Below, piece after piece: positions 24,278-25,811 of a DNA stretch of 64,000 nt (position 1 is its first letter; each line of letters starts with the position of its first letter). A program made the position numbers and the translations under genes. This DNA is from a phage. Below the pieces are notes generated by a model. It was not told the DNA's origin, did no database searches, and saw only the letters and a program-made list of their open reading frames with translations. The stretch is from the sequence record PZ583739.1; one strand, written 5' to 3'.

Positions 24278-25095
24278 ACTTTCTGTGAAGAAAATCTTTT
24301 GCCTTTTGAAAAAAACTGCTGAAGGGGGAGTAATACCACATTTGCCCAGTCGCTGGGCTTGATTTCAGTAATAGTACCTTTTATATTGCCAGGTATATAT
24401 GCTTTAATCATCTGGTCAGCCCCTTTAAATCCCTTCACTTTTGACCAATCAATCTTCAGATGAGTCTTGTTCGTAATCGTAGGAGTATTAGCATATTGCT
24501 TAAGAAGTTCCTCAAGGAACTCTTGACGTGCCTTCGGTGGAATATAGTGCAAGTTCAAACCATACATCAAATTGTGCTTACCTAGCCCAAGATAAATGAT
24601 TAACGGATATTTGTCCCAGTACGGAAGAGTATCCTTATGCTTTGCATCATAGATATAAGCATAAATCTTACCCGGTTGAGGTTTAGCCGTTACGTGGCCC
24701 CGAACTGATTTCTTAATTGTCTCTGCGAACCATCTGGCAGATTTGGTGTTGCTTGCGGCGCCTTCGTTAGCAATCTTATCTCTTATGCTCTTTCTAAAGC
24801 TATTCACCATTATCAGCTGACGTTCAGCCTTCGTAAGTTTACCGGCAGGTTTCTTTTTGAGCTTGGATACTTTATAAGCAGTCTGAATTCTCGAATGATA
24901 TCTTGACATGCTTTTGGTAAAGGTCGAATAGTTGATTCCTTTCTCTTCAGCAAACTTCTTCGAGGTCATTCCCTTTTCTTTTGCTGTATAAAATTCAACC
25001 CCTATCTCAACCCATTGTTGTTCGGATTTACTGGGTTTCGGACCTGGTTTATCTGCAGATTCATTGATAAATGTAAAAATACTCATCCTTTCCAT
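24259..25095 (-). CDS. 2: DNA end protector gp2
   Basis: 278 aa basic protein in the gp2 position and size range. Confidence 0.7.
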
Positions 25096-25811
25096 CCTTC
25101 TATAAAATTAATCAAATCATTTTTTAAATAGTATGGTAAGGTTTCTGTATAGCCATCGACCATAATATCTTTATTCAAATAACCTCTGTCTTTTATATAT
25201 AATACAGATATTGCGGATTCTAACATTTTGGCTTGTGCACCCAGTTCAAATTCTCGATAATATAATTTGGAACTAATGCATTTGGAAAAATGATTTTGCT
25301 GCCACAATCTAAAATCATGATTGGAAGTTATACCATACTTTAAAGCAGTTCCGCCTGGATATTCTATTTTATTAACATAAACAATAGCAGGTTTCTTTGC
25401 GTTAAATCCTTTGTGACAACAGTTTGGACATCCTTTGTTTTTTGTTGTAAAGTTGTTTAGATTTGTAATCCAACTGGTTGAACACGTAGAACACTTTATA
25501 TAGGCTTTTGATTTTGTAAAAGTTGAATATGTGGTATCCCATTTATCAAAACTATACAATGGATTCACGGAATTTATTCTTGTGATTGCATCTAATTCAG
25601 ATATTAATTTGCTTTCACCATAAGAACGTTTTAAATTACAATTAGAACACCAACTTTTTGTTTTTAACTTATGCTTTAAAACAGTTGCTTTGTATTTGCA
25701 TGTTTCTTCACATATAAAGCACTTTACAAATATCAAAGTTTTTGATTTATTAAAATCGCCTTGTCCCACTATCTCGCCATTTGTGATGTTAAAATCTGAA
25801 CAATCGTACAT
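25083..25811 (-). CDS. Cys-rich zinc-ribbon protein, possible nuclease-like insert
   Basis: Several CxxC pairs ([21 protein letters not shown]) plus IVYV...KYGIT segment; lies between genes 2 and 4. Confidence 0.45.

Follow-up and report, generated by a model that had tools for sequence, protein, structure and literature searches.

In phage T4, genes 2 and 4 are adjacent (76061-76885 and 76885-77337), as the original prediction had stated. In the phage record PZ583739.1, of which a stretch of 64,000 nucleotides was analysed (the window), a cysteine-rich open reading frame (ORF) lies between the two, raising the question of what this gene encodes and how it came to be wedged between two head genes.

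An additional reading frame between genes 4 and 2

The open reading frame listing returned the ORF, on the minus strand, with the position and length that had first been read from the window (Table 1). Its start codon and the stop of gene 4 have one base in common (TAATG), so that the two genes abut as described. The reported overlap with gene 2 exists as well, with the difference that its length of 13 nt did not hold up, being the product of the longest mechanical gene 2 ORF (MERMSIFTF...). In all distant orthologues, and in all annotated relatives except the RefSeq entry of RZ, where gp2 is annotated from the upstream ATG, gp2 starts at M(S/G/D/A)IF...; the true overlap is therefore most likely 4 nt, the ORF stop overlapping the gene 2 start as ATGA at 25083-25086. 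The same bases belong to GGATGGAAAGGATGA, which now makes up the 3' end of the ORF (four codons plus stop); in MHG19, this sequence recurs as a perfect 18-bp direct repeat on either side of the ORF. The transcript of gene 4, the ORF and gene 2 likely starts at the TATAAATA promoter, and scanning of the region directly upstream of the ORF found no late promoter motif there. An RNA hairpin hiding the ribosome-binding site of the ORF, as in mobE, was likewise unsupported, the start region having less structure than shuffled sequences (z = +1.97). Gene 2 is bracketed by the ORF upstream and by a MobB-like HNH gene downstream, the latter being a second free-standing homing-endonuclease gene that is unrelated to the ORF and variably present among relatives.

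Table 1. Features at and around the gene 4-gene 2 junction, in window coordinates.
Feature	Position	Strand	Details
MobB-like HNH gene	23603..24277	minus	224 aa; between genes 2 and 3; phrog_655, 2.4e-56
Gene 2 (DNA end protector)	24259..25086	minus	downstream of ORF; gp2 = phrog_429, 2e-78
Cysteine-rich ORF	25083..25811	minus	242 aa + stop, ATG start; free-standing homing-endonuclease-like gene; phrog_681 'endonuclease', 2.5e-29
GGATGGAAAGGATGA	25083..25097	minus	remnant of ancestral gene 4 3' end (G-W-K-G-stop), gene 2 ATG embedded
C-terminal GIY-YIG-superfamily (T5orf172/MUG113-like) nuclease domain	25086..25397	minus	residues about 139-242; Y145, K158-Y159-G160, R168, E198, D219-G-Y-T-E223-T
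Zinc-ribbon module 2	25407..25562	minus	residues about 84-135; C107-x2-C110, C128-x2-C131; PF14311 DUF4379 over residues 100-133
Zinc-ribbon module 1	25632..25784	minus	residues about 10-60; three strands + helix (AF2); C31-x2-C34, C55-x2-C58
Gene 4 (head completion)	25811..26263	minus	upstream of ORF; gp4 = phrog_218 head closure, 3e-61
T4-type late promoter motif TATAAATA	26292..26299	minus	upstream of gene 4

The ORF has the properties of a real gene and of one with a foreign base composition, its GC content being 29.8% vs about 40% in the flanks. Homologues were recovered at E-values of 1e-153 to 1e-34, and 1478 cluster representatives matched it at E <= 1e-3 in an exhaustive HMMER search, which was needed for most of these relatives, a word-index protein search having returned only the cluster of identical proteins and MHG19. 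The ORF is under purifying selection: against the 69%-identical MHG19 orthologue, dN/dS over all three domains is 0.16, a value that is approximate because dS is saturated, and for the nuclease domain it is 0.19, as low as for the zinc ribbons. A related-loci search of IMG/VR with the ORF protein found none, and a search for a second family copy within the window gave only a weak, zinc-ribbon-level match to an ORF at 49900-50505.

Zinc-ribbon modules and a GIY-YIG-like nuclease domain

Cysteines occupy positions 4, 31, 34, 38, 55, 58, 107, 110, 128, 131, 132 and 178 of the protein, and form exactly four CxxC pairs (at least four had been anticipated). These pairs are distributed as two knuckles in each of two tandem modules which align to each other (F20-C58 with F98-C131), an arrangement that characterizes the treble-clef modules of the CapR/DUF4379 type. 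The ORF protein scores 20.8 bits on DUF4379, below the Pfam gathering score of 24.5, and the orthologue P0002 (69% identical) exceeds the cut-offs of both CapR (30.6 vs 24.2) and DUF4379 (27.2 vs 24.5). Among 33 aligned relatives, 28 match DUF4379 and 26 match CapR; in the family alignment, C128 and C131 never vary and C107 is at least 90% conserved. The suggestion of a zinc finger is thereby made specific as two Cys4 zinc-ribbon modules which, by analogy with the CapR work cited in PMC10448857, may bind zinc and recognise DNA in a sequence-specific manner.

C-terminal to these modules lies the IVYV...KYGIT segment (IVYV, residues 143-146; KYGIT, 158-162) that had been compared to GIY-YIG or T5orf172-type nuclease cores, a comparison supported by family-model matches in relatives, the predicted fold and conserved residues. 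The ORF protein itself reaches no Pfam gathering score, and was without a T5orf172, MUG113 or GIY-YIG match at E <= 1 (PF10544, PF13455 and PF01541), while P0002 falls marginally below the T5orf172 cut-off (19.5 bits vs 20). Relatives aligned over the same domain match MUG113 in 17 of 33 cases (best 9e-10), T5orf172 in 13 (5e-7) and GIY-YIG in four (2e-5), and this transitive homology places the ORF in the T5orf172/MUG113 branch of the GIY-YIG superfamily. An AF2 model (pLDDT 91.5) predicts a beta-beta-alpha-beta-alpha topology for the C-terminal domain, its three strands forming one sheet and a helix following each of strands 2 and 3, as in the GIY-YIG alpha/beta fold. Viral structures in BFVD provided 138 matches, named CapR-homology, T5 Orf172, GIY-YIG or homing endonuclease; Foldseek against the PDB gave no significant match.

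Residue conservation agrees with this assignment. Invariant in the family are C128, C131, K158, G160, R168, G191, E198, G220 and E223, with Y145 nearly so (at least 90%) and Y159 present, which supplies the strand 1 Tyr, the strand 2 Tyr-x-Gly, the helix 1 Arg and the Glu in the helix after strand 3 expected of GIY-YIG proteins. The nuclease domain is complete, and its key residues are invariant in relatives down to 22% identity. A helix-1 His/Tyr like that of canonical GIY-YIG enzymes could not be made out, R168-x2-Q-Q standing in its place in the family, and in this respect the ORF resembles the origin-directed nuclease Odn (Gp88) of phage ICP1, which carries a homologous T5orf172 domain. 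A weak hhalign match to Odn (132 columns, E 0.001, probability 21%, template a single sequence) pairs E198 with E180 of that protein and DGYTE223T with WSVE202TF. Substitution of that Odn residue (E180A) abolishes cleavage in vitro and in vivo (PMC8263062), and E198 is the predicted catalytic residue of the ORF protein.

Occupancy of the junction and linkage to a gene 4 allele

Surveying the 2|4 junction in other T4-like genomes, as had been proposed with the original prediction, revealed the ORF in some and an empty junction or a Seg-like gene in others. That the gene is an insertion, as first thought, is borne out by its absence from T4 and most Gapriverviruses, where genes 4 and 2 overlap; the empty junctions of T4, VR7, SP18, VR25, UPEC01 and P896 consist of ATGA or a 1-nt overlap, and identical copies of the ORF occur in RZ, DK-13 and fPSFA. 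Such sporadic presence among collinear close relatives with precise empty sites is typical of homing genes. The four nearest homologues, found in other T4-like genomes or contigs (MHG19, 69%; L018, 44%; L020, 35%; L016, 33%), are all flanked by gp4 and gp2, tying the ORF sublineage to the single gene 4|gene 2 site in at least five T4-like hosts. In these four other hosts the GC content of the homologue is 4.6-11 points below that of the adjacent gene 4. Other family members occupy other contexts, in T5 (between tail chaperone and tape-measure gene) and in Phi1 (downstream of gene 2). P479, P8 and PSD2001 carry an unrelated, Seg-like NUMOD3/GIY-YIG gene at precisely the gene 4|gene 2 position.

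Occupancy of the slot is also linked to a particular allele of gene 4, the product of which we take to have a TnsA-like nuclease fold. The window's allele ends in ...GYKGL* and has 71% nucleotide identity to the allele of empty-site Gapriverviruses; among megablast-detectable copies it is present in seven records from six phages, all with the ORF or a Seg-like gene in the 4|2 slot. In 50-bp windows, identity of gene 4 to empty-site genomes is 56-86%, compared with 88-100% over the 5' 750 bp of gene 2 among Gapriverviruses, whether or not they carry the insert. Over the 100 bp preceding gene 4, identity to empty-site genomes is again 96-100%, except for UPEC07, which has another insert there. 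Linked exchange of flanking alleles, like foreign base composition, is a known signature of homing genes; the linkage in six phages could also mean common descent, not repeated co-conversion.

A candidate homing endonuclease and its alternatives

We consider it highly probable that the ORF encodes a homing endonuclease from the T5orf172 branch of the GIY-YIG superfamily, the gene being a free-standing, selfish and mobile element residing between head genes 4 and 2. Conceptually it is nothing new, being an uncharacterised member of a class already described: Barth, Dunham & Seed 2023 (PMC10448857) reported T5orf172 homing genes with CapR/DUF723/DUF4397-type zinc-finger repeats, located at boundaries of allele exchange and swapping slots in what is termed 'HEG-island' behaviour. 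The original reading, an inserted nuclease-like or zinc-finger gene of uncertain function, therefore stands in its first three terms and gives way in the word 'uncertain', since that class is on record. As in the described class and in T5.141 of phage T5 (UniProt ENDO2_BPT5, 'putative endonuclease'; tblastn 8e-17 over 59% of the ORF protein, about 36% identity), repeated N-terminal zinc ribbons precede a C-terminal T5orf172/MUG113 domain. The gene is also free-standing, variably present beside essential structural genes at an allele-exchange boundary, and in a swappable slot. Unlike the class as described, it resides in the Tevenvirinae (Gaprivervirus), T4 itself being without T5orf172 genes (PMC10448857), belongs to a single-site sublineage, and on its own falls below Pfam cut-offs.

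Beyond the architecture, fold, distribution, base composition, allele linkage and purifying selection observed here, we infer DNA cleavage by the ORF protein, the location of its target and gene conversion, in the following manner. The ORF would be transcribed late, on one message with genes 4 and 2, from the TATAAATA promoter, and its translation would be coupled to that of gene 4 at TAATG. The two N-terminal CapR/DUF4379-type modules would recognise a specific DNA sequence, and the C-terminal domain would cleave close by, its likely active residues being Y145, Y159, R168, the putative metal-binding E198, and E223 of the family motif DGYTET. During mixed infection with a relative having an uninterrupted 4|2 junction, the break would be repaired from the gene-bearing genome, and both the nuclease gene and the divergent gene 4 allele next to it would be copied in. 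The carrier genome would be protected because its junction is split and its gene 4 is about 29% diverged.

Comparison with the homing genes of T4-related phages argues against two other family assignments. Like T4 SegA-G, the ORF belongs to the GIY-YIG superfamily and is free-standing and intergenic between essential T4-type genes, and it shares both its slot and the linked gene 4 allele with the Seg-like gene of P479, P8 and PSD2001. Seg proteins, however, have an N-terminal canonical GIY-YIG domain (PF01541) followed by C-terminal NUMOD/HTH DNA-binding elements, whereas the ORF shows the reverse domain order, zinc ribbons as predicted DNA-binding elements and a T5orf172-branch nuclease; with its nuclease domain C-terminal and NUMOD lacking, a canonical Seg-type enzyme was rejected. 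No profile-to-sequence similarity was detectable: when the family profile was compared with the P479 Seg-like protein by hhalign, only an 11-column zinc-knuckle match (probability 3%) emerged. Hef-type homing endonucleases of T4-related phages, reportedly described by Sandegren and colleagues in 2005, resemble the ORF in being free-standing in a T4-like phage and not assignable to classical families when first seen. This identity was rejected because Hef has been assigned to the Vsr-like (I-Bth0305I) family (PMC3239194); on the strength of that published assignment the ORF is set apart by its GIY-YIG fold, and it lacks a Vsr-family Pfam match (0/33 relatives).

Selfish homing is to be weighed against a domesticated nuclease, in which the same architecture has been selected to attack foreign DNA of a satellite, competing phage or host for the benefit of the phage. 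ICP1 provides a precedent in Odn, a T5orf172 nuclease recruited to act against PLE satellites (PMC8263062), and both the retention of the lineage at one site down to 33% identity under purifying selection and its translational coupling within an essential late operon would fit such a role. Yet the ORF is dispensable, most close relatives being without it, and the interchangeability of its slot with an unrelated Seg-like gene fits selfish turnover over a fixed beneficial function. Moreover, domesticated Odn takes its specificity from a RepA_N domain acquired from its satellite target, not from zinc ribbons, whereas the ORF combines two Cys4 ribbons with signatures of a selfish element; and excluding a competitor's allele amounts, in practice, to homing. 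Domestication is, on balance, unlikely.

Less probable still is a regulatory protein that binds DNA site-specifically, whose nuclease domain is inactive or vestigial and which would tune late genes 4, 2 and 3. Precedents for a repressor role exist in I-TevI and in CapR, a satellite protein that descends from zinc-finger domains of this kind and represses capsid genes (PMC10448857), and the CapR homology of P0002 and of 26 of the 33 family members, together with the R168-x2-Q-Q in place of an evident helix-1 His/Tyr, would accord with it. Against this, nothing is missing from the nuclease domain, whose key residues stay invariant across the most distant relatives and which is constrained as tightly as the ribbons, while Odn is an active nuclease despite likewise lacking the helix-1 His/Tyr (PMC8263062). 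Lastly, a structural or assembly accessory of the gp4/gp2 module, cysteine-rich by chance, might be suggested by the position between two virion-completion genes, late co-transcription and linkage to a particular gp4 allele, but is effectively refuted by the distribution of the ORF, absent from T4 and most of its own genus, with family members in the unrelated contexts of T5 and Phi1, a nuclease fold and motifs, and no match to any structural family; a structural or assembly protein conserved at the locus was looked for and not found.

For the gene itself, a 'hypothetical protein' in GenBank (RZ, DK-13, fPSFA and MHG19) now has a specific prediction comprising a domain map, catalytic residues, a target region and a homing phenotype. 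The homing-type T5orf172 genes of ICP1 are still without an experimental test of cleavage or homing, according to PMC10448857, and it appears that no homing-type T5orf172 gene has a reported homing test; classical homing genetics is easy in T4-like phages, and RZ and SP18, for example, would make a convenient Gaprivervirus pair for T5orf172 homing. The locus represents a compact natural case of a slot contested by two unrelated nuclease genes, of a sharp recombination boundary at which gene 4 (about 71% identity) adjoins gene 2 at 88-100%, and of an essential-gene allele linked to selfish nucleases. More speculatively, and with considerable doubt on our part, this T5orf172 sublineage may be no mere transient parasite but a lasting occupant of the 4|2 junction across T4-like genera (100% to 33% protein identity) with gene 4 as its cargo, forming an 'HEG island' in which zinc-ribbon T5orf172 and Seg-like GIY-YIG nucleases alternately drive an alien gene 4 allele through Gaprivervirus populations. 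If so, these nucleases would be directly required for an essential head-completion gene to be exchanged between genera.

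The reading frame between genes 4 and 2

The 242-aa cysteine-rich ORF wedged between genes 4 and 2 is a genuine gene; a chance reading frame is excluded by its low GC content (29.8%, compared with 40.4% in the window as a whole and 39.4-40.4% in genes 2 and 4), by an exhaustive HMMER search in which 1478 cluster representatives reached E <= 1e-3, and by a dN/dS of 0.16 relative to its 69%-identical orthologue. Gene 4 and the ORF overlap by a single base where stop and start codons meet (TAATG), confirming that the two abut, and an overlap with gene 2 also exists. The 13 nt originally predicted for this overlap requires an in-frame upstream ATG (MERM...); the real overlap is most likely the 4-nt ATGA at 25083-25086, since gp2 begins with M(S/G/D)IF... 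in four distant orthologues and in every annotated relative except RefSeq RZ, and with MAIF... in T4. Genes 4 and 2 are indeed adjacent in T4, sharing 1 nt.

Features of the window and predicted GIY-YIG residues of the 242-aa ORF product
Feature	Position	Strand	Remarks
ORF, 242 aa, ATG start	25083..25811	minus	ORF listing
Gene 4 (gp4, head completion protein)	25811..26263	minus	upstream of ORF; phrog_218 head closure, 3e-61
Gene 2 (gp2)	24259-25086	minus	downstream of ORF; phrog_429 DNA end protector, 2e-78
T4 late-promoter motif TATAAATA	26292-26299	minus	just upstream of gene 4
MobB-like HNH free-standing homing-endonuclease gene, 224 aa	23603-24277	minus	between genes 2 and 3; phrog_655, 2.4e-56
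201-aa ORF	49900-50505	plus	phrog_5104 (unknown function), 1.7e-76
GIY-YIG Tyr, strand 1	Y145		
GIY-YIG Tyr-x-Gly, strand 2	Y159 and G160		
GIY-YIG Arg, helix 1	R168		
GIY-YIG Glu, helix after strand 3	E198		

Since the late-promoter motif precedes gene 4, with none immediately before the ORF and no stable structure at the ORF start region (z = +1.97), the ORF is most likely a late gene, expressed via translational coupling from the transcript that carries genes 4 and 2. Across the whole window the motif occurs 20 times (5.2 expected from shuffles), on the minus strand up to 26299 and on the plus strand from 36252 on, in agreement with the direction of late genes.

Features of the flanking proteins were also identified. 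gp4, named ‘head completion nuclease’ in one relative's record, also matches Pfam Tn7_TnsA-like_N (TnsA-like endonuclease N-terminal domain; 1.9e-22), and a nuclease-fold virion protein thus adjoins nuclease genes. gp2 divides between two PHROG matches (residues 4-82, phrog_32288 ‘HTH DNA binding protein’; residues 81-277, phrog_429 ‘DNA end protector’), which suggests a separable N-terminal module.

Domain architecture and predicted active site

Eight of the 12 cysteines in the ORF protein form exactly four CxxC pairs (31/34, 55/58, 107/110, 128/131), where at least four had been proposed, and the IVYV and KYGIT segments were located at residues 143-146 and 158-162. In a Pfam scan of the query by itself, the only match was a sub-threshold one to DUF4379 (‘probable treble clef zinc finger’; 20.8 bits, cut-off 24.5), and phrog_681 ‘endonuclease’ matched at 2.5e-29. 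For the MHG19 orthologue, scores of 30.6 bits for the CapR homology domain and 27.2 bits for DUF4379 exceeded the Pfam cut-offs, whereas the T5orf172 score of 19.5 fell short of the cut-off of 20. Separate scans of the 33 sequences in an alignment of the query with 32 relatives (22-69% identity) identified DUF4379 in 28, CapR in 26, MUG113 in 17, T5orf172 in 13 and GIY-YIG in four. An AlphaFold2 model generated from this alignment (mean pLDDT 91.5) comprises two alike modules (residues ~10-60 and ~84-135), which align with one another and are each built of three strands plus one helix with two CxxC knuckles, followed by a C-terminal beta-beta-alpha-beta-alpha domain (residues 142-204) and a terminal helix. 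Together, the model fold, phrog_681 and the domain matches of relatives support the nuclease-like or zinc-finger reading of the original prediction. Foldseek found no match for the whole model in the PDB and 138 viral matches in BFVD, with names including ‘CapR homology domain-containing’, ‘Bacteriophage T5 Orf172 DNA-binding domain-containing’, ‘GIY-YIG domain-containing’ and ‘Homing endonuclease’. A weak match to HhaI (E 0.14) was dismissed as chance.

Invariant alignment columns correspond to C128, C131, K158, G160, R168, G191, E198, G220 and E223, with M1, C107, P129, G135, Y145, I161, T222 and T224 conserved at >=90%. The order and modelled secondary-structure setting of these residues fit the GIY-YIG pattern (see table). 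Alignment by hhalign with Odn (Gp88), the T5orf172 nuclease of ICP1, spanned 132 columns (E 0.001; probability only 21%, the Odn template being a single sequence), pairing E198 with Odn E180 and DGYTE223T with Odn WSVE202TF. With the E180A substitution, Odn loses its cleavage activity both in vitro and in vivo (PMC8263062). The Odn alignment and the helix position thus point to E198 as the predicted catalytic Glu rather than E223, which was set aside in this role and is part of a family-specific C-terminal motif.

Slot occupancy and a linked gene 4 allele

Gaprivervirus phages, which form the VR7/SP18 group of Tevenvirinae, match the region at 89-99% identity and vary in the occupancy of the gene 4-gene 2 junction, one of several signs of mobility at this site. 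The ORF protein is 100% identical in vB_EcoM_RZ, DK-13 and Shigella phage fPSFA (2 nt differences in RZ and fPSFA), the RZ protein already being labelled ‘endonuclease’ by RefSeq, and 69% identical in Yersinia phage MHG19. Consistent with the proposal of an inserted gene, the junction lacks the ORF in VR7, VR25, SP18, UPEC01 and P896, where, as in T4, genes 4 and 2 overlap at their stop and start codons. In P479, P8 and PSD2001 the exact same slot holds a different gene, whose 215-aa Seg-like product matches NUMOD3 and GIY-YIG.

In divergent T4-like genomes or contigs, the four nearest homologues (69, 44, 35 and 33% identity) share this position, each with a TnsA-like gp4 gene on one side and gp2 on the other; one of the contigs is a 171.7-kb metagenomic genome. 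In these four other hosts, ORF GC is 4.6-11 points below that of the adjoining gene 4. The empty site reads ...TTAGGATGGAAAGGATGAGT, encoding the gp4 terminus ...L-G-W-K-G-stop with the gene 2 ATG within. Because the insert sits directly 5' of GGATGGAAAGGATGA in the window, the final four codons of the ORF (G-W-K-G) and its stop are the former end of gene 4. In MHG19 the ORF is flanked by an 18-bp direct repeat (AGGATGGAAAGGATAATG). The end of the Seg-like gene in P479 and P8 falls at almost the same position, no more than a few bases away (...GCGA|GGAAAGGATGA). Purifying selection acts on all three ORF domains (dN/dS 0.12-0.19, approximate given saturated dS).

Occupancy was also linked to the gene 4 allele. 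gp4 ends in ...QFRLITEDALRKMGYKGL* in every Gaprivervirus with either nuclease gene, and in ...TFRI(I/L)TEN(S/G)LKKLGWKG* in every empty-site genome. Between these classes gene 4 identity is 56-86% (50-bp windows), against 88-100% for the 5' 750 bp of gene 2 and 96-100% for the 100 bp upstream of gene 4 in all relatives but UPEC07, in which an extra gene is inserted there. Gene 4 of the window is equally distant from those of VR7 (71% identity) and T4 (70.6%), and a megablast search with it against 50,697 phage records returned seven, four with the ORF and three with the Seg-like gene. This linkage comprises n=6 phages, and shared descent could be its source.

A predicted homing-type element in a variable neighbourhood

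Taken together, the ORF is a predicted free-standing homing-endonuclease-type element of the T5orf172 branch of the GIY-YIG superfamily, in which tandem CapR/DUF4379 zinc ribbons form the predicted DNA-recognition part. Gene conversion and, for the ORF product, cleavage, target-site position and the binding of zinc and DNA are inferred. Two rival readings, a nuclease domesticated for use against competitors and a regulator resembling CapR whose nuclease domain is dead, are less likely because the ORF is dispensable, its slot turns over, and its conserved catalytic residues are under selection. A Hef-type identity was rejected, Hef being reported as Vsr-like (PMC3239194).

The homing-type element belongs to a class that Barth et al. 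2023 (PMC10448857) described, in which T5orf172 genes, absent from T4, carry repeated CapR/DUF723/DUF4397 zinc-finger domains and adjoin essential genes at allele-exchange boundaries, within ‘HEG islands’ whose nuclease occupants turn over among unrelated classes; the same paper describes homing by ICP1's T5orf172 genes as experimentally unverified. Gene 2 has a nuclease gene on either side, the ORF upstream and the unrelated MobB-like HNH gene downstream, which matches the island pattern. Family members elsewhere differ in position: T5.141 of phage T5 is flanked by the tail assembly chaperone and tape-measure genes. ORF130.1 of Phi1 (Krischvirus; 343 aa, L006 1039-2070), another zinc-ribbon/T5orf172 family member, directly follows gene 2 and precedes gene 3, placing it in the same neighbourhood but a different slot.

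Further variable genes were identified nearby. The MobB-like HNH gene, which has a 19-nt overlap with the end of gene 2, occurs in VR7, VR25, fPSFA and P479, and is absent from RZ, SP18, UPEC01 and P8. Another variable insert, a 211-aa ‘hypothetical protein’ gene, lies between genes 53 and 5 in P479 (L003 3334-3969), P896 (L009 2219-2854) and PSD2001 (L010 2869-3504) and is missing from the window (gene 53 end 26914, gene 5 start 26911). Yet another ‘homing endonuclease’ gene occurs in UPEC07 between genes 53 and 4 (L008 1811-2518), upstream of gene 4 and overlapping gp4 with an extended N terminus. The entire 53-4-2-3 block is a hot spot for homing-type genes. Elsewhere in the window, the 201-aa ORF, wedged between the tail sheath (gp18, 47853-49832) and tail tube (gp19, 50650-51192) genes, has its own late-promoter motif (49875-49882), a CxC...CxxC zinc-knuckle region weakly matching the profile of the 242-aa ORF family (E 8e-5), an HNH-like ...LDHKVSI...NLEIVTWESNRSKG motif, judged by eye, and no Pfam family match; it may represent a further unannotated homing-type nuclease.

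The 242-aa ORF is thus an uncharacterised representative of an already known gene type, modestly interesting as a site-faithful sublineage across T4-like phages, and for two nucleases sharing one slot and one gene 4 allele.
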